Source: a virus. Taken from it: a stretch of 64,000 bases of DNA. This document shows positions 15,901 through 52,599 of the stretch, in pieces. Below the pieces are notes generated by a model, which did no database searches, was not told the DNA's origin, and was given only the letters and a program-made list of their open reading frames with translations. Both the position numbers and the translations under genes were made by a program. Where the stretch lies: positions 32,001-96,000 of IMG/VR virus record IMGVR_UViG_3300032401_000690. One strand, written 5' to 3'. Numbering within the stretch: the stretch's first letter is position 1; each line of letters begins with the position of its first letter.

Positions 15901-18414
15901 ATGTCAGACGCTAGAATAACCGATTTACCATTAATATTATCAGGAGATATTAGATCTAATAACGTCCTACCAATTGTTGATATTGATAATGATATCACAG
16001 ATAAAATCACATTAGACCAACTTAGAACTTATGTTAATAGTGGTGAAACATTTTTATATGAAGTGGGTTCAGGAACTTGCTCAACTCAAAGAGTTGGTGT
16101 TAGTGGATCCGCAATTGGTGATTATTCTATAGTTGCCGGGGGATTAAATAACACATCAAGTGCGCCTTATTCAACCGTAAGTGGTGGTTATTATAATACA
16201 AGTTCGTCTGACTACGGATCAATCGGAGGTGGGGCAAACAATACAATATCAACATATTCTCGTTATGCTACAATTGGTGGTGGTGACGATAACACAATAC
16301 TTCCAAATAGTGAGGTAGGAACAATATCAGGTGGTGAAAATAATACACTTAGCGGTTGTTACTCATTTATTGGTGGGGGGTATAATAACAACATATTTGG
16401 CAATTATTCAACCGTAAGTGGGGGTTATAGAAACACATCAAGTGGAAATAATTCAACCGTAAGTGGGGGTTATAATAACACATCAAGTGGTTATAACTCA
16501 ACAATAAGTGGAGGTTATAATAACACATCAAGTGGTAATTATTCAACCGTAAGTGGTGGATATTATAACACATCAAGTTCTTACCAATCAACGGTAGGTG
16601 GAGGTTATAGAAACACAATTAATCAATTCTCAACTTGTTCTGGAAAATATATTATTGCCGGTAATACAGTTGGTGGTGGAAATAATAACTTAATTAATTC
16701 AAATAGTGCATATTATGGAGATGCTGGTGGTGTAACAATTAATGGTGGTTACCTTAATAGAACAAACTCAGGTTATTACGGATTTAACACAATAGGTGGT
16801 GGTGTAGGTAATGATGCAAACCTTGAATACTCAACAGTAGGTGGGGGAACGTTTAACTCATCAACACAATCATTTACAACAGTAGGTGGTGGAGCGTTTA
16901 ACACTAACTCATCATATGTTTCTACAATTAGTGGTGGTTATTGTAATACAATCGGAACTTTATCTTCTTATTATGGTCCTATTATAGGTCAAACTATTGG
17001 TGGTGGTTCTTGTAATACAATTTCATCATATAGTGGGCAATATTGTAATGGTGGGTCAACAATAAGTGGTGGATATAGAAACACAACAGTTTCTTCTTAT
17101 TATGGTGGACAAACAATTGCCGGGGGATGGTGTAATGTAACGTCAAGTAATTATTCAACCGTAAGTGGTGGTCGTCTTAACACATCAAGTGGTCGTTATT
17201 CAACGGTAAGTGGTGGTGGTGGAAACACATCAAGTGGTTATAATTCAACAGTAAGTGGTGGTTATAGAAACACATCTAGTGGTCGTTATTCAACCGTTGG
17301 TGGTGGTAGAAATAATTTGGTGGAAAACACACTTGATACAATTGGTGGTGGTTGTTGTAATACAACAATGTTAAGTGGTGGTTTTGTCGGAGCATCAACA
17401 GTATCTGGTGGTTATAGAAACACATCAGGAAATTATTATACATTTAATGGTGGTGGTATTAATAATATTACACTTGGAGAATATTCATCAATAGTTGGTG
17501 GACAAAATAACGTAAACTATGGTGGATATGTTACCTCCATTAGTTTTAATTCTGGTAGTTTATCTGGTATCACAGATAACACATATACCGTTAACCCAAC
17601 TAATTTAGGTGGTTATGGGTTAAACTTACAAATTAGTTTTGATGTTAATAGTGGTGTTTTAAGTAACATAATAATTTTAAATTCAGGTGTTAAATATGAA
17701 AATGGACAACAAGTTTTAGTTTCTGGTAACACTATTGGTGGTTCTTCACCAGAAAATGATTTAACTTTTAATATAGACGTTGCTGTTTATTCAGATTACT
17801 CAACCATTGGTGGTGGTCAAAATAACACATCAATTGGAAATTATACAACTATTGGTGGGGGTTCATTTAATATTGTTAATGGTAATGGGGCTACTGTTGG
17901 TGGTGGTGGTGGATCTTGTTCATTGTTTGGTAATAAGGCTTTGGGGGATTATTCAACTGTGGGTGGAGGTCGTAGTAACACATCAAGTGGGGATACCTCA
18001 ACCATAGGTGGAGGTCGTAGTAACACATCAATTGGGGATTATTCAACCGTAAGTGGAGGGATTTTTAACACATCAAGTTGTGATCTTTCAACGGTAAGTG
18101 GTGGATATAGAAACACATCAAGTGGGTTTAGTTCAACCGTAAGTGGTGGTTTAAATAACACATCAAGTGGTCGTTATTCAACGGTAAGTGGTGGTCGTCT
18201 TAACACATCAATTGGTTTATACTCAAGTGTTTTAGGTGGTTCTGGAAATACAGTTTCAAATGACTGTTCATTTATTGTTGGAGATAGTATTATATCCAAT
18301 AGAATTTGTTCAACATTTGTTAATAATTTATCAATTATGAATATACCAACAAGTTCCGCTGGATTACCAACAGGTTCAGTTTGGAGTAATCTTGGGATAT
18401 TAAATATTGTTTAA
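15901..18414 (+). CDS. Fibre/adhesin-like beta-helical repeat protein (14-aa YSTVSGGxxNTSSG repeats)
   Basis: Dozens of GGxxN repeats; phage fibre-like N-terminus (ARITDLP) and C-terminus (PTSSAGLPTGSVW). Confidence 0.7.
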   Translation: MSDARITDLPLILSGDIRSNNVLPIVDIDNDITDKITLDQLRTYVNSGETFLYEVGSGTCSTQRVGVSGSAIGDYSIVAGGLNNTSSAPYSTVSGGYYNTSSSDYGSIGGGANNTISTYSRYATIGGGDDNTILPNSEVGTISGGENNTLSGCYSFIGGGYNNNIFGNYSTVSGGYRNTSSGNNSTVSGGYNNTSSGYNSTISGGYNNTSSGNYSTVSGGYYNTSSSYQSTVGGGYRNTINQFSTCSGKYIIAGNTVGGGNNNLINSNSAYYGDAGGVTINGGYLNRTNSGYYGFNTIGGGVGNDANLEYSTVGGGTFNSSTQSFTTVGGGAFNTNSSYVSTISGGYCNTIGTLSSYYGPIIGQTIGGGSCNTISSYSGQYCNGGSTISGGYRNTTVSSYYGGQTIAGGWCNVTSSNYSTVSGGRLNTSSGRYSTVSGGGGNTSSGYNSTVSGGYRNTSSGRYSTVGGGRNNLVENTLDTIGGGCCNTTMLSGGFVGASTVSGGYRNTSGNYYTFNGGGINNITLGEYSSIVGGQNNVNYGGYVTSISFNSGSLSGITDNTYTVNPTNLGGYGLNLQISFDVNSGVLSNIIILNSGVKYENGQQVLVSGNTIGGSSPENDLTFNIDVAVYSDYSTIGGGQNNTSIGNYTTIGGGSFNIVNGNGATVGGGGGSCSLFGNKALGDYSTVGGGRSNTSSGDTSTIGGGRSNTSIGDYSTVSGGIFNTSSCDLSTVSGGYRNTSSGFSSTVSGGLNNTSSGRYSTVSGGRLNTSIGLYSSVLGGSGNTVSNDCSFIVGDSIISNRICSTFVNNLSIMNIPTSSAGLPTGSVWSNLGILNIV
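16400..16620 (+). repeat. 42-bp coding tandem repeats (further blocks ~17150-17300 and ~17945-18210)
   Basis: Recurrent ATTCAACCGTAAGTGG...AACACATCAAGTGG unit; boundaries approximate. Confidence 0.8.
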
Positions 18415-41664: not shown

Positions 41665-41753
41665 TTAAATTATAGGTTTCCTCCGACTGTTATTTTTATA
41701 TCATACGAGACACAACTGGTGGGTGTCCCCCCAAATTATAGGTATCTTCCAAC
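41665..41753 (-). CRISPR. CRISPR-like mini-array 3 (degenerate): repeat 41718-41753, 30-bp spacer, truncated repeat ~41665-41687
   Basis: GTTGGAAGATACCTATAATTTGGGGGGACACCCACC plus half repeat GTCGGAGGAAACCTATAATTTAA. Confidence 0.55.
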
Positions 41754-42007
41754 CATATACTGAGTATATCCCTTGTTTGTGAGTCATCTAACCCAAAAAT
41801 GTTTTTAAAAAACGACCAAAGTCTTTCTCTATTTATAAACACAAACCCATTTTTAATATTATGACGATAGAAAAATAACGGTCTTAGGTCTCTATCAACA
41901 TAAAATGTTTTATCACCTTTAACCTCCGGAGTTAAATCACCAAACTCTTTGTGTAACCACTTAAACACCAATCTGTCCCTACTACTTTCAGTTATTATTA
42001 TTTTCAT
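41696..42007 (-). CDS. Array-associated small protein, paralog 3 (MKIIITES family)
   Basis: Paralog of 42286..42624; ends WLEDTYNLGGHPP, encoded by the repeat. Confidence 0.75.
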   Translation of the reverse strand: MKIIITESSRDRLVFKWLHKEFGDLTPEVKGDKTFYVDRDLRPLFFYRHNIKNGFVFINRERLWSFFKNIFGLDDSQTRDILSIWLEDTYNLGGHPPVVSRMI

Positions 42008-42015
42008 ATCATTTT

Positions 42016-42370
42016 AAATTATAGGTCTCTTCCAACCTTAGGTACGCTTGATTTGAATGGAAGAAACCATGTGTGAGTCCCCTCAAATTATAGGTCTCTT
42101 CCAACTTTTACTATTAATAAAAACATCCTATTCTGGGTGTGAGTCCCCTCAAATTATAGGTCTCCTCCAACTACGCCAAGCTTTGCAAAGGAGACCAAGT
42201 AGGTGTGAATCCCCTTAAATTATAGGTCTCCTCCAACTATAGAGAGAAAAGTAGAATAGCCCAAGTTGGTGTGAATCCCCTTAAATTATAGGTCTCCTCC
42301 AACGGAATTGGAAATGTAAAGGGTTGCCCAAGTTGGTGTGAATCCCCTTAAATTATAGGTCTCCTCCAAC
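42016..42370 (-). CRISPR. CRISPR-like mini-array 2: five 36-bp repeats plus truncated terminal repeat, five spacers
   Basis: Repeats at 42335-42370, 42268-42303, 42202-42237, 42136-42171, 42070-42105, half at 42016-42036; spacers 31, 30, 30, 30, 33 bp; consensus GTTGGARGAGACCTATAATTTRAGGGGAYTCACACC. Confidence 0.75.
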
Positions 42371-42624
42371 CATATAGTCAGAATCTCCTTTGTTTGCAAG
42401 TAACTCAGACCAAAAATAGAATCAAAAAATACCCAAATTCTGTCGTAATTTATATAAACATCCCTATTTTTTGAATCCTGGTAATACACAAATAACGGTT
42501 TTCGGTCCTCATCAACATAATATGTTTTATCATCTTTAACCACCGGAGTTAGATCACCAAACTCTTTGTGTAACCACTTAAACACCAATCTGTCCCTACT
42601 ACTTTCAGTTATTATTATTTTCAT
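42286..42624 (-). CDS. Array-associated small protein, paralog 2 (MKIIITES family)
   Basis: 112 aa; reads through repeat 1 (LEETYNLRGFTP) and spacer 1, stops inside repeat 2. Confidence 0.75.
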   Translation of the reverse strand: MKIIITESSRDRLVFKWLHKEFGDLTPVVKDDKTYYVDEDRKPLFVYYQDSKNRDVYINYDRIWVFFDSIFGLSYLQTKEILTIWLEETYNLRGFTPTWATLYISNSVGGDL

Positions 42625-42632
42625 ATCATTTT

Positions 42633-42786
42633 AAATTATAGGTCTCTTCCAACCAATTTACAGAAACTTGACGGTATATAATTGGGTGTGAGTCCCCTCA
42701 AATTATAGGTCTCTTCCAACGGGATTTGCATAATCACCTGCCCATGCACTGGTGTGAGTCCCCTCAAATTATAGGTCTCTTCCAAC
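42633..42786 (-). CRISPR. CRISPR-like mini-array 1 within the 3' end of the SOD-fusion gene
   Basis: Repeats 42751-42786 and 42685-42720, half repeat 42633-42653; spacers 30 and 31 bp. Confidence 0.7.
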
Positions 42787-44129
42787 CATACCTTCAGAAT
42801 CTCCTGTGTTTGCGGGCGTTTCAGACCAAAAATAGAATCAAAAAATACCCAAATTCTGTCGTAATCTACATAAATAAACCCATTTTTTTCATCCTGGTAA
42901 TACACAAATAACGGTTTTCTGTTCTCATCAACATAAAAGGTTTTATCACGTTTAACTACGGGTGTTAGATTTCCAAACTCTTTGTTTAACCACTTTAATG
43001 CGGATTTAAATTTAGGATCAACCGATTCGTTAATTGATTCTTTTTTACTTGTTCTCAAGTCATAAAGACTAGTAACGAATTCCCAATTAATATGGTTCCA
43101 AAATTTATTAATATATTGGTCTCGTTTATTTTTATATCTTAAATAATATGCGTGTTCCCAAAGATCTAATCCAAGGATTGGATATCCACCATTAACATCA
43201 TTCATTAATGGGTTATCTTGGTTTGGTGTTGTAATAATTTTTAATCTATTAGTTTTTGTTAAAACCAACCATACCCAACCTGAACCAAAACTATCCAAGG
43301 CGGCCTTATTAAATTCTTCTTTAAAATTTTTAAATGATTTGTATTGGTTTGTTATTTTATCTAAAAGATCCCCTTTTAAAGTTTGTTTTTTTGGGGTTAA
43401 CATTTTCCAAAACAATGCGTGATTAAATGCACCACCGGCATTATTTCTGACCTTTGTATTAAATTTAGTGATAGTTTTAATGATGTCCTCAAGTTCTATA
43501 TCACCTTTTCTACTTGATAATGCATCATTTAATTTTTTAACATAACCTTTATAATGTTTGTTATAATGAACATCCATTGTTTCAGGATCAACAAATTGTT
43601 TTAATGCCGAATATGAATAGGGTAATTTCTCAATACCAATTTTTTTCATTTCGGTAATGAATTCTTTTTGAATGTTAATTTTGTCTGTTAATACGATTTG
43701 TTCTGTTAAGATATCAATTCTATTTGAAATGGGTTTTAACCCCTCATAAACAATATTAACCATTTCGGGGTGTTCTTTTTCAAACATTTTAATTAATCGT
43801 CCAGCACCAGCATTTGCTTCATCCTCATTTTTTCCACCAATATCTTGACCAATTTCCCGTTTTAATATGGTCATTTGATGTTCGTGAATCCATTCGTGTG
43901 CAAGAGTTCTTAAGATATCTCGGTTCAACCGACCTTTAGTTAAAATTTTAATACCAAACTCATCACTTCTACTACCAGTCGTCATTTGACCTGTGCGATC
44001 ACCCAAGAAAGAAACTAATATATCATTCTTTAATGGATATTTTTCATTTAAAAACTTAATAAATTTTTTGGCAAGATCCTTACTTTCTTGGGACATTGAG
44101 CATTTAATATGTTTAATAGATACTTTCAT
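42636..44129 (-). CDS. sod: Fe/Mn superoxide dismutase fused to an N-terminal HExxH domain and a C-terminal array-associated domain
   Basis: HYNKHYKGYV, NNAGGAFNHALFW, FGSGWVWL, DLWEHAYY; N-term LAHEWIHEHQ...NEDEANA; C-term KWLNKEFG...WLEETYNL. Confidence 0.9.
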   Translation of the reverse strand: MKVSIKHIKCSMSQESKDLAKKFIKFLNEKYPLKNDILVSFLGDRTGQMTTGSRSDEFGIKILTKGRLNRDILRTLAHEWIHEHQMTILKREIGQDIGGKNEDEANAGAGRLIKMFEKEHPEMVNIVYEGLKPISNRIDILTEQIVLTDKINIQKEFITEMKKIGIEKLPYSYSALKQFVDPETMDVHYNKHYKGYVKKLNDALSSRKGDIELEDIIKTITKFNTKVRNNAGGAFNHALFWKMLTPKKQTLKGDLLDKITNQYKSFKNFKEEFNKAALDSFGSGWVWLVLTKTNRLKIITTPNQDNPLMNDVNGGYPILGLDLWEHAYYLRYKNKRDQYINKFWNHINWEFVTSLYDLRTSKKESINESVDPKFKSALKWLNKEFGNLTPVVKRDKTFYVDENRKPLFVYYQDEKNGFIYVDYDRIWVFFDSIFGLKRPQTQEILKVWLEETYNLRGLTPVHGQVIMQIPLEETYNLRGLTPNYIPSSFCKLVGRDL

Positions 44130-48774: not shown

Positions 48775-51700
48775 ATGGCAACTAACAGTAAAGTATTTGT
48801 ATCACCAGGTGTATATACTTCAGAAGTAGACTTAAGTTTCGTTGCACAAAGCGTTGGTGTTACCACTTTAGGTATTGTGGGGGAGACTTTAAAAGGACCT
48901 GCTTTCGAACCAATCTTTATCAGAAACTTTGATGAATTTACGGCTTTTTTTGGTGGAACATCTGCTGAGAAATTCGTAAATACTCAAATCCCTAAATATG
49001 AAGCGGCTTACATCGCAAAATCATATTTACAACAATCTAACCAATTATTCGTAACAAGAGTATTGGGATTATCAGGTTATGATGCAGGACCATCTTGGTC
49101 TATCGTAACTGTGGCAAACGTTGATCCAACAACAATCGGATTTGATTGTGCTAGTGGTGAGACAGTAGATTGTAACTTTGTATGTACATCAGCACATACA
49201 TTTGATATTAATGTTGATTTTACGGGATGTACTAATAACATATCATCTGTAGGATTTACAAGTAACTTCCCAAGTCAAATTCAATCAATCTTAAATAATT
49301 CTTACCAACAATTTAATGGTGGGACATCAACTTTAAATGATGATATAACAGGAACAATATATGATATCATCACATTAGATAATCCTGGCGCAGGTCAAAC
49401 AGTAATTGATTATTTCGGTTCTATTGATACCGATGATTATAATGTTTTACATCCAATTTTTTCTGCTGGAACTGAGAATAATAATTTTAGTGTTCCCTCG
49501 GTCTCTTTAGATGCAACTAATCTTGAATCACCATTAAATGATTCTTGGTATTATGCATTATTTGATAATACAGGAAATGGTAATTATACAGGTTTCTCAT
49601 TCTATTCTTATGTAACGGGAACAACTGCCACATCAACATCAAGTAATTGTGCGTCATTCTACTCACTTAGTGTTGGAGGGTCGGTTACTTCATTTGATCC
49701 TATTGTTTCAGGAGGTACAGGTTATACGGCATCAACAACAGGTTTAACAACAGTTAACATAAGTGGTGTTGGTTCAGGATTAACGGTAGATGTGTCAGTA
49801 AGTGGTACTGGTGTTGTTACAGGGGTTACAATTAATTGTGAAGGTTCAGGGTATGAATTGGGAGACATTGTTCAGATAGTTCAGCCAGGTTCAGGTGGAG
49901 ATGCGACCTTATCGATTATTGTCGGTGCAACTACTAATGGTATCATTAATTATAATACAAATACAATAAATGTATGTTTACCATCTGGGACATCAACTTG
50001 TGTATTATCTACGTTGGTTCCTACATTCAGTGCTTGTACGAGTGGTGTTAGTGTTAATTCAGTAATACAATCAAGTGGTGGAACCGCAAATAATTTCACG
50101 TCAGGTTCAGTAACATATGTGTTAACATCTGAAGATAGTACTTTAACAACAACTTGGACGGTTAATGTTCAAATAAATGATCCTTGTAATCCTTGTTCTT
50201 TCGCTAGTGGTGGAACACAAAATACAGGAGAAATAACAACTTGTTATTCAGGTCAAGTAGTAGGTAAATTATATCTATATACAGGTAATTCATTTACTGA
50301 CTATGATGATATGGTAGTTGGAACATTAAGATCAAGAGGTATATCTGATTATGTTGATGGTACAAACCCAACATATGAAATAACAGGAGTTACTGATGTA
50401 ACACTTGATATGACAGGACCTTACTCAGGAGTTGCAAAAAATCCTTATATGTCATTTGTTGTAAATGCAACAAATTATGAAGGAACTAATTATTCTTTTG
50501 AAACTTCTTTCACTGCGAGTGATGCTAAATACATACCTAAAGTGTTTGGAACTTCCAATTTTGGAAAACCAAGAAACGTTGTTCCATTAATGATGGAAGA
50601 AAGATTCCAAAACTTGTTAAATTACGCATACAAGAAAGGATACATTAGAGGTTTAAGTAATAACCTAATTTCTTTGAATTCTGCTCAAAGTGAAGAATCA
50701 ACATCAATTGGATGGTACTTGGATAAATACCAATCACCAAGTTCTCCTTGGGTTGTATCTGAATTAAGAGGTACTAAAATTTATAACTTATTTAAGTTCT
50801 ATACTATATCAGATGGTAATACGGCAAATACTGAAGTTAAAATATCAATTTCTGATATATCATTCGCAAATCAAACATTTACTGTATTGGTTCGTGATTA
50901 TTATGATAACGATTCTGCACCTACAGTATTGGAGAAATTCACAAACTGTACGTTGGATCCAAGTCAAAATAATTTCATTGCGAAGAAAGTAGGAACACTT
51001 GATGGTGAATATGAATTGAATTCTAAATACATAATGGTTGAAATGAATGAAGATGCTCCGGTAGATGCGTTACCTTGTGGATTTGAAGGATTTAACTTTA
51101 GAGAGTATTCAGGAGCAATTCCTCCATTCCCAATTTATAAAACAAAATACGATTTCCCAGGTGAAGTAATTTATAACCCACCATTCGGTTTACCTACAGG
51201 TGGAGACAATTCTACAACAACAGGTGGTGATAACATAAGAAGAACTTATCTTGGGATGTCAAATTTCTGGGGTTATGATAGTAACTTCTTTGAATATAAA
51301 GGTAAAAGAAACCCAATTTCATCTTGTAATTTAGAAGGTGGTGAGTGGTCTTACAGAACAAAAGGTTACCATATGGATAAAAACGCAAGTGGTCTTACGA
51401 TCTCAAGTGCGTTTGCTACAAGTGGGACACCAAGATTCTTTGTTGGAGACGCACCATTTGCATCTGAACCAACAAGTGAGTTAAGTCCTTATTATAGAAT
51501 ATTCTCAAGAAAATTCACTTTGTTTGTACAAGGAGGATTTGACGGATGGGATATCTATAGAGAATTTAGAACTAACGGTGATAAATATGTTTTAGGTAGA
51601 ATAGGTTTCCTTAATGGGGCTTGTCCTACAGATAGATACCCAACGGCATCTGGATGGGGAGCGTTTAAACAAATCTCTATTGGTGATGGAACACGTACTT

Positions 51701-52599
51701 GGGCAAATACTGACTACTACGCATACTTGTTAGGTATTAGAACATTCTCTAACCCTGAAGCAGTTAATATTAACGTATTTGTTACTCCGGGTATTGATTA
51801 TATTAATAACTCTGATTTAGTTGAATCAGCGATTGATATGGTTGAGAACGAAAGAGCGGATTCGTTGTATATTACAACAACTCCAGATTACAACTTGTTC
51901 TTACCAACAACAACAGGTATTGATGGATTAATCTACCCACAAGAAGCGGTTGATAATTTAGATGGTACGGGTATTGATTCCAACTACACGGCAACTTACT
52001 ACCCTTGGGTATTAACTCGTGATAGTGTTAATAATACACAAATCTACATTCCACCAACTGCTGAGGTGACGAGAAACTTAGCATTAACCGATAATATCGC
52101 GTTCCCTTGGTTCGCAGCGGCGGGTTACACTCGTGGTATTGTAAATGCGGTTAAAGCACGTAAGAAGTTAACTCAAGAAGATAGAGATACACTTTACCTT
52201 GGAAGACTTAACCCAATTGCTACCTTCTCTGATGTTGGTACCGTAATTTGGGGTAATAAGACACTTCAATCAAGAGAATCAGCACTTGATAGAATCAACG
52301 TAAGAAGATTGTTATTACAAGCACGTAAGTTGATATCTTCAGTTTCAGTTAGATTGTTGTTTGATCAAAATGACGAACAAGTAAGACAAGATTTCTTAAA
52401 TGCGGTTAATCCAATTTTAGACTCTATCAGAAGAGACCGAGGTTTATATGATTTCCGAGTAACAGTTTCAAGTGATACTGCGGACTTAGACAGAAATCAA
52501 ATGACGGGTAAGATCTATATCAAACCAACTCGTTCGTTAGAATTTATTGATATAACGTTCTATATTACACCAACAGGTGCATCGTTTGAGAATATATAA
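48775..52599 (+). CDS. Contractile tail sheath protein with large insertion
   Basis: VSPGVYTSEVD, G.T.KGP; C-terminal PWFAAAG..RG, NPIATF, WGNKTL, RINVRRL, IKPTRSLEFI. Confidence 0.93.
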   Translation: MATNSKVFVSPGVYTSEVDLSFVAQSVGVTTLGIVGETLKGPAFEPIFIRNFDEFTAFFGGTSAEKFVNTQIPKYEAAYIAKSYLQQSNQLFVTRVLGLSGYDAGPSWSIVTVANVDPTTIGFDCASGETVDCNFVCTSAHTFDINVDFTGCTNNISSVGFTSNFPSQIQSILNNSYQQFNGGTSTLNDDITGTIYDIITLDNPGAGQTVIDYFGSIDTDDYNVLHPIFSAGTENNNFSVPSVSLDATNLESPLNDSWYYALFDNTGNGNYTGFSFYSYVTGTTATSTSSNCASFYSLSVGGSVTSFDPIVSGGTGYTASTTGLTTVNISGVGSGLTVDVSVSGTGVVTGVTINCEGSGYELGDIVQIVQPGSGGDATLSIIVGATTNGIINYNTNTINVCLPSGTSTCVLSTLVPTFSACTSGVSVNSVIQSSGGTANNFTSGSVTYVLTSEDSTLTTTWTVNVQINDPCNPCSFASGGTQNTGEITTCYSGQVVGKLYLYTGNSFTDYDDMVVGTLRSRGISDYVDGTNPTYEITGVTDVTLDMTGPYSGVAKNPYMSFVVNATNYEGTNYSFETSFTASDAKYIPKVFGTSNFGKPRNVVPLMMEERFQNLLNYAYKKGYIRGLSNNLISLNSAQSEESTSIGWYLDKYQSPSSPWVVSELRGTKIYNLFKFYTISDGNTANTEVKISISDISFANQTFTVLVRDYYDNDSAPTVLEKFTNCTLDPSQNNFIAKKVGTLDGEYELNSKYIMVEMNEDAPVDALPCGFEGFNFREYSGAIPPFPIYKTKYDFPGEVIYNPPFGLPTGGDNSTTTGGDNIRRTYLGMSNFWGYDSNFFEYKGKRNPISSCNLEGGEWSYRTKGYHMDKNASGLTISSAFATSGTPRFFVGDAPFASEPTSELSPYYRIFSRKFTLFVQGGFDGWDIYREFRTNGDKYVLGRIGFLNGACPTDRYPTASGWGAFKQISIGDGTRTWANTDYYAYLLGIRTFSNPEAVNINVFVTPGIDYINNSDLVESAIDMVENERADSLYITTTPDYNLFLPTTTGIDGLIYPQEAVDNLDGTGIDSNYTATYYPWVLTRDSVNNTQIYIPPTAEVTRNLALTDNIAFPWFAAAGYTRGIVNAVKARKKLTQEDRDTLYLGRLNPIATFSDVGTVIWGNKTLQSRESALDRINVRRLLLQARKLISSVSVRLLFDQNDEQVRQDFLNAVNPILDSIRRDRGLYDFRVTVSSDTADLDRNQMTGKIYIKPTRSLEFIDITFYITPTGASFENI

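Follow-up and report, generated by a model that had tools for sequence, protein, structure and literature searches.

A 64,000-nucleotide stretch of viral DNA (the window), corresponding to bases 32001-96000 of the 144-kb IMG/VR virus record IMGVR_UViG_3300032401_000690 (here G000, completeness estimated at ~49%), carries at positions 41665-42786 three tandem modules in which a protein-coding gene runs directly into an array of the CRISPR type. The data support the conclusion that these arrays are CRISPR-type, rather than decayed duplications or a protein-level repeat, and every spacer bears the mark of former translation as the C-terminal tail of the protein encoded next to it. The arrays are probably genuine CRISPR-type arrays to which a host integrase adds spacers in trans, with selection on the protein tail filtering what is added. 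Their carriers are cas-less jumbo phages, probably of Bacteroidota.

Within positions 41665-42786 a 21-nt repeat core occurs in 11 copies, all on the minus strand, where 0 are expected (100 shuffles). Parsing gave eight full 36-nt repeats, three truncated terminal repeats and eight spacers, arranged as three gene-plus-array modules with two, five and one full repeats, each set closed by a truncated repeat; the counts and coordinates of an earlier note, made from the letters of this DNA and a list of its open reading frames (ORFs), all hold. The spacers measure 30 and 31 nt in module 1, 31, 30, 30, 30 and 33 nt in module 2 and 30 nt in module 3, and all eight are unique. Repeat 1 supplies, in every module, the final 12 codons of an ORF, (W)LEETYNLRG.TP. 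The array therefore starts within the last 12 codons of the gene and the gene acts as the leader, a placement that the same note had recognised.

All three modules are read from the minus strand. Module 1 belongs to a 497-amino-acid (aa) ORF (42636..44129) in which an N-terminal, HExxH-containing region is followed by an Fe/Mn superoxide dismutase (SOD; Sod_Fe_N, E 7.5e-21; Sod_Fe_C, E 1.1e-39) and a C-terminal, array-linked domain of ~90 aa (aa 376-460, matched by the hidden Markov model of the domain). Its repeat 1 (42751..42786) lies within the ORF and codes for LEETYNLRGLTP; it is followed by spacer 1 (42721..42750), repeat 2 (42685..42720), spacer 2 (42654..42684) and a truncated terminal repeat (42631..42653) that retains the first 23 nt. 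The ORF stays open across both repeats and both spacers and ends in the terminal repeat. Module 2 consists of a 112-aa ORF (42286..42624), comprising the ~90-aa domain and a tail encoded by spacer 1 with its stop within repeat 2, and an array (42014..42370) of five full repeats (42335-42370, 42268-42303, 42202-42237, 42136-42171 and 42070-42105), five spacers and a truncated terminal repeat (42014-42036). Repeats R1-R3, next to the gene, are of the same variant as the gene itself and R4-R5, at the distal end, of an older one, and three of the module 2 spacers share similar beginnings. Module 3 is a 103-aa ORF (41696..42007), again the domain with a tail encoded by spacer 1, and an array (41665..41753) of repeat 1 (41718-41753, in the ORF), one spacer (41688-41717) and a degenerate truncated terminal repeat (41665-41687). 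In modules 1 and 2 the truncated repeat reaches the next ATG, for module 1 the start codon of module 2, as had been described previously. The description of a small protein with an array fits modules 2 and 3, module 1 being the SOD fusion, and the count of three tandem modules is right for the window; a fourth gene-plus-array module lies outside it, on the plus strand at G000:C1:143982-144147 (= L011 4983-5148), where it is cut by the contig end.

The same organisation was found across a sample of 96 related phage and metagenome loci, which hold 76 distinct arrays (array counts here refer to distinct arrays) with up to 7 spacers each, and 152 of their 154 spacers are unique. Spacer lengths follow a ruler: 27 nt (1 spacer), 29 (22), 30 (69), 31 (37), 32 (23) and 33 (2), 30 being the commonest. 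The identity of internal repeats to repeat 1 exceeds 90% almost throughout, falling to 84-87% at positions 28-29, and the terminal repeat follows repeat 1 only until about position 23; comparable terminal truncation is seen in bona fide host arrays. As in CRISPR arrays generally, then, near-identical direct repeats (23-47 nt) separate unique spacers of uniform length. A non-coding, AT-rich leader was not found; upstream of each array is a conserved protein-coding gene with repeat 1 as its last 12 codons.

Growth of the arrays is polarised, with gain at the leader end, shared older spacers and a degenerate terminal repeat. Among near-identical lineages, module 1 of the window equals the array of locus L087 plus one additional gene-proximal unit: spacer 2 is common to both and spacer 1 is missing from the otherwise identical L087 array, and is therefore the newest unit. 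Similarly, the fourth array of G000 and the array of L082 have spacer 2 in common and differ in spacer 1, and of 11 variable arrays, 9 have their repeat variants grouped in contiguous blocks. It is because the spacers are unique, their lengths ruler-like, turnover restricted to one end and homologues furnished with different spacers that the arrays are regarded as CRISPR-like.

A feature that had escaped the earlier note is the imprint of translation on the spacers. Of 1447 spacer codons read in the gene's frame 40 are stops, whereas the remaining sense frames have 220/2929 (p=4e-11), a ~2.5-fold depletion that is limited to the frame continuing the upstream repeat. The depletion is present in both repeat lineages, in first spacers and in later spacers now beyond the reach of the ribosome (0.029 vs 0.075, p=5e-5); no frame-specific depletion was found among 1210 host spacers. 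The in-frame stops that remain lie mostly at spacer codons 6-9, and ORF tails past repeat 1 have a median of 16.5 codons, against 10.3±2.3 expected from shuffled spacers; in the two other frames, read from the sequence, the next repeat provides stop codons. The stops that had been reported earlier in the distal spacers of module 2, as a sign that this is no simple protein repeat, are real, but in the spacers' own frame stops are strongly depleted. The possibility that spacers are native coding tails was rejected, as their codon usage is not gene-like (log-odds 0.085 vs 0.52 for real genes); nor are their base composition and periodicity. On the simplest reading, the spacers consist of arbitrary DNA, each had to leave the tail open during its time next to the gene, and the protein needs ~5 or more residues after RGxTP. 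The stop-codon imprint thus lends independent support to gene-proximal acquisition.

The exact window repeat is present in two further IMG/VR contigs and 38 metagenome loci. Homologues of the small protein form 41 close clusters, the count obtained for the module 3 protein, and extend to 56 viral loci down to 27% identity, while a profile search for the domain returned 1,779 clusters at 50% identity; the ~90-aa domain family is large and found only in viruses. Chains located by repeat sequence alone start inside a domain gene in 57/59 testable cases. Homologues do carry arrays with different spacers, as had been asked of them in the earlier note, and at least one downstream repeat copy accompanies 78/125 distinct domain copies, a figure that is an undercount, some 'natural' tails having proved to be a spacer plus a degenerate terminal repeat. 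De novo repeat detection showed that distant homologues (~30% identity) also carry arrays from the 3' end of the gene, and there the array repeat has diverged jointly with the 3' end of its own gene. The complete 296-kb relative G001 has 16 domain copies (L231-L245, e.g. 238.8-242.3 kb) and at least nine arrays. Six of these copies stand in a tandem cluster, and two paralogous G001 arrays hold one short spacer in common, from which it follows that whole modules have been duplicated. At L009 (2239-4044), L084, L091 and L019, unrelated proteins of 550-600 aa carry domain and array as a C-terminal fusion, joined by a conserved linker, E[ST]INESV[DN]PKFKS. Such arrangements suggest that the domain-plus-array module moves as a unit, landing at gene ends.

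The partners to which the domain is fused (SOD, a cyanophycin-synthase-like N domain, or none) are uninformative, and the small protein itself has no match in Pfam, PHROGs or PADLOC. An AlphaFold (AF2) model of aa 1-97 of the module 2 protein, built from a 60-sequence alignment, has a predicted local distance difference test score (pLDDT) of 87 and an alpha-beta4-alpha-alpha fold. No match to it was found in the PDB (Foldseek E>0.3; VIA Z <=4.4), weak helix-turn-helix-like rows of the fold searches lie within noise, and fold matches in BFVD and the ESM atlas are uncharacterised viral proteins only. For the other reading in the earlier note, a small protein partnered with guide RNAs of its own, the fold searches gave no support. 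The HExxH motif of the SOD fusion protein (LAHEWIHEHQ; window 43850-43910, minus strand, ~aa 75-90 of ORF 42636-44129) is of a kind typical of zinc metalloproteases, and no Pfam family matched the N-terminal ~160 aa of this protein. The sequencing runs listed with the locus are of DNA, none of RNA, and come from sediment, wetland and freshwater metagenomes; contigs from such runs break at the repeats, and array variants are not resolvable there.

Neither Cas13b (NF038190) nor Cas1 (PF01867) was detected in G000 (at ~49% completeness) or in the complete G001, although positive controls were, and PADLOC returned no match among the large phage ORFs while recognising a Cas13b control. The absence of cas genes noted earlier for the window therefore extends to both genomes, and in neither are the arrays associated with such genes. 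Furthermore, the spacers are not self-derived: 0/10 had a protospacer in the 144-kb G000 contig and 0/12 in the complete G001, with the exception of one spacer that is duplicated in a paralogous array. The spacer target search that had been recommended earlier found no protospacers in 762 kb of four related jumbo phage genomes, in ~1 Mb of related loci or in INPHARED, nor any in IMG/VR for the 4 spacers searched there (exact 24-mers). Comparison of 1233 host spacers with phage DNA, and of phage spacers with host loci, gave only chance-level matches of <=24 nt. Mean GC (guanine plus cytosine) content is 34.5% for the spacers and 30.5% for the phage loci.

A Bacteroidota host, suggested in the earlier note by the repeat architecture, is likely because large phage ORFs encode domains specific to that phylum: a galactose-binding domain associated with the type IX secretion system (T9SS), SprB repeats and a Por secretion C-terminal sorting domain. 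These ORFs (G000:C1:10488-12929 and 128368-130614; L226, L229) lie outside the window and possibly serve surface-adhesin mimicry. A scan for host arrays of the form 36-nt GTTG-N28-CANC, with incomplete host sampling, yielded at least 120 loci, nearly all in Bacteroidota, next to which Cas13b, type II-C Cas9 and one Cas13a were verified as effectors. Host repeats were oriented by the cas13b strand for comparison with the phage repeat in gene sense. Orientation by the truncated terminal repeat gave inconsistent results. A host Prevotella metagenome-assembled genome (L132) and the account of Smargon et al. include bona fide Cas13b arrays whose partial repeats lie not where the cas13b orientation predicts them but at the other end; truncation of the terminal repeat is therefore unreliable for orienting type VI-B arrays.

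The phage repeat agrees with the consensus of real Cas13b-linked repeats at 24/36 positions (gapped score 20.5 vs 16.2±1.4 shuffled, z=3.1), which bears out the match of about two thirds to a Cas13b repeat given in the earlier note, and the best single phage/Cas13b repeat pair also reaches 24/36. In the II-C comparison, one of sequence similarity alone, Flavobacteriaceae-type repeats gave z=2.2 and the main II-C class z ~0. The gene-sense strand is the better match to Cas13b repeats in 78% of phage repeats. VI-B direct repeats have complementary 5'-GUUG / CAAC-3' ends and a conserved stable hairpin (Smargon et al., 10.1101/092577). Twelve Cas13b-linked repeats indeed fold into the canonical hairpin (minimum free energy (MFE) -9.7, z -2.7), whereas 83 phage repeats have a mean MFE of -3.9 kcal/mol (z +0.2) and no stable hairpin. 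The window repeat has the GTTG start but finishes at its 3' end with CACC rather than CAAC, the latter being limited to some lineages (L058, L060, L027). The type VI-B architecture proposed previously thus stands as regards repeat length (36 nt), spacer size (~30 nt) and GTTG start, with the 24/36 identity as a possible further resemblance, and falls as regards the hairpin and, in the window, the CAAC end. Rfam gave CRISPR-DR8 only, below threshold and on the opposite strand (22 bits; gathering threshold 39).

The anatomy and dynamics of the arrays are best explained by integrase-type, polarised insertion at the junction of gene and repeat 1. Spacers of 29-33 nt would be inserted singly at this junction (TG|GTTGG), with repeat 1 being duplicated at each insertion. 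The putative enzyme would be a Cas1-Cas2-type integrase of the host acting in trans on phage DNA, and the adaptation module common to II-C and VI-B systems in Bacteroidota would be its likeliest source, given that the phage repeat resembles the repeats of those systems. In Flavobacterium, II-C Cas1-Cas2 supplies VI-B arrays with spacers in trans, although the two differ in leader and repeat (Hoikkala et al. 2021, PMC8092290). Each insertion would swap out the sequence coding for the protein tail, and those placing a stop within ~5 codons of ...RGxTP would be removed by selection. The mRNA of the gene would extend into the array and could feed CRISPR RNA (crRNA)-like units to a host effector; the missing self-derived spacers suggest that such units have consequences, for example the targeting of rival elements. 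It can be proposed only tentatively that a widespread jumbo-phage gene family has become fused with arrays such that host integration writes a crRNA unit and a new C-terminal peptide at once, both of them under selection. In such a fused gene and array, phages might conceivably have co-opted host CRISPR adaptation, possibly also interference, through a new kind of gene-array coupling.

Several observations weigh against host-driven insertion with selection on the tail. The terminal repeat is not a full copy, though a first integration into the gene end predicts one, and the arrays may instead have originated by recombination with a host array or in a single ancient event. The phage repeats are without significant RNA structure, which argues against loading onto Cas13b, and in a crude test the synonymous sites of repeat 1 were no more conserved than those of upstream codons. 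No host array with the phage repeat was found in 185,579 species genomes by a strict pattern, and when 3 mismatches were tolerated, ~1,604 Bacteroidota genomes yielded 5 single hits, as many as the control rate predicts; the closest host repeats among those sampled have only 23-26/36 positions in common with it, a comparison limited by a possibly unsampled host.

An alternative, judged unlikely, is that the arrays are a by-product or an integration decoy: the gene end would mimic a leader-repeat junction at which host Cas1-Cas2 mis-integrates, the RNA would have no function and selection would merely preserve the protein, the many phage copies at most diverting the integrase from the host array. 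The unstructured repeats and the lack of extra synonymous constraint on them are in keeping with this, purifying selection acting purely at the protein level would be expected to leave such a stop-codon filter, targets are numerous (16 copies in G001), and in-trans adaptation machinery tolerates non-cognate leaders and repeats (PMC8092290). However, prespacers should then derive mostly from the replicating phage, yet 0/12 (G001) and 0/10 (G000) match it, and inert arrays would be expected to contain many self-derived spacers, these being neutral. Arrays also persist in lineages diverged to ~30% protein identity, and had the gene's own sequence received the first integration, a truncated terminal repeat would not be expected.

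The earlier note had inferred guides or decoys for a host Cas13b, that is, competitor targeting or an RNA anti-CRISPR (Racr), with cleavage following each repeat releasing spacer+repeat crRNAs of 66 nt from the gene transcript. Repeat length, modal spacer length, the GTTG start and a probable Bacteroidota host all suit such a role, as does the resemblance in the sense orientation to repeats near verified Cas13b, which the main Cas9 repeat class does not share and which the gene-sense strand shows more strongly in most phage repeats. The absence of self-derived spacers is what active crRNAs would predict, and surveys of solitary repeat units, in which ORFs were masked and none was found for type VI, could have missed arrays of this kind (PMC10651486). 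Against it are the absence of the VI-B hairpin (MFE -3.9, z +0.2 vs -9.7, z -2.7), the CACC end of the window repeat, the lack of a near-identical host repeat in the genomes searched and the failure to find protospacers in the jumbo phages, related loci, INPHARED or, for 4 spacers, IMG/VR. Use of the arrays as Cas13b guides or decoys is doubtful because the stable hairpin and, in the window, the CAAC end are missing, and overall this explanation appears improbable.

Very improbable is a tail-cassette system unrelated to CRISPR, in which repeat+spacer units would be silent alternative tails swapped by inter-repeat recombination. Spacers open in the gene's frame, the lengthened ORF tails (16.5 vs 10.3 codons from shuffled spacers), stops supplied by the next repeat in the two other frames and the three module 2 spacers that begin alike could each be read in this way. 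Yet neither the codon usage of the spacers (log-odds 0.085 vs 0.52 for real genes) nor their periodicity is gene-like, their lengths peak ruler-like at 29-33 nt rather than at multiples of three, they are unique and unrelated, the change observed is polar gain at one end, and neither a recombinase nor a template is apparent. Decayed tandem duplication of the gene end, or a protein-level repeat, is refuted, as already argued in the earlier note for the latter: some arrays with 30-nt spacers do read through in frame (e.g. L010), but 152 unique spacers in 76 arrays are without similarity to one another while the repeats stay >90% identical, the reading frame is lost because spacer lengths vary, and turnover is polar.

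Two further features of the window were recorded. On the plus strand, an 837-aa ORF (15901-18411) without a Pfam match contains long tandem repeats of 45/90/135 nt at 16373-18215, and looks like a repetitive fibre or adhesin protein. At 48775-52596, also on the plus strand, is a 1274-aa ORF, the last ~300 aa of which match phage tail-sheath domains; it is uncommonly long for a sheath protein.

Cas-less viral mini-arrays are themselves already known: those described combine a non-coding leader with host-identical repeats and with spacers targeting related viruses (Medvedeva et al. 2019, PMC6858448; reviewed in PMC11656645). The phage arrays resemble them in residing in viral genomes without cas genes, in occupying an equivalent position with different spacers in related viruses, a sign of active turnover, and in their presumed reliance on host Cas proteins. 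They differ in that the leader is a protein-coding gene with repeat 1 as coding sequence, that there are up to 7 spacers per array and at least four arrays per genome (at least nine in G001), that the phage repeat is identical to no host repeat found, that no spacer targets a related virus within the DNA searched and that spacers are filtered for translatability. With VI-B arrays (10.1101/092577) they have in common a 36-nt repeat, ~30-nt spacers, a GTTG 5' end, an ACA(A/C)C 3' end, a T-rich stretch followed by GA(A/G)GGG, 24/36 identity to the consensus and a locus without its own Cas1/Cas2; unlike them, the phage locus has no Cas13b gene and no stable hairpin, the window repeat ends in CACC and the array is embedded in a gene.

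Racrs are likewise phage-borne mimics of CRISPR repeats without cas genes, but they are non-coding, usually solitary and close mimics of the host repeat, whereas the phage repeats described here lie in ORFs, form growing arrays and are without repeat structure. In the Racr survey, which found no solitary repeat units for type VI, ORFs were masked before searching (Camara-Wilpert et al. 2023, PMC10651486), and gene-embedded arrays would therefore have escaped surveys of that design. The acceptor array studied by Hoikkala et al. (2021) is on the host chromosome, unlike the acceptor here, which would be inside a gene of an infecting phage. No earlier description was found in the literature of a gene-array coupling in which each new spacer also becomes the protein tail, nor of an array with a protein-coding gene as leader or of spacers imprinted by translation.

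If the proposed reading is true, infecting phage genomes are natural substrates of host adaptation complexes, and the gene/repeat junction would be a compact, testable integration substrate. It would also mean that ORF-masking tools have overlooked a whole class of repeat mimics, which would be the first with a likeness to type VI. Furthermore, the analysis flags a large, unannotated phage domain family that comprises 1,779 clusters at 50% identity and can reach 16 copies in one genome.

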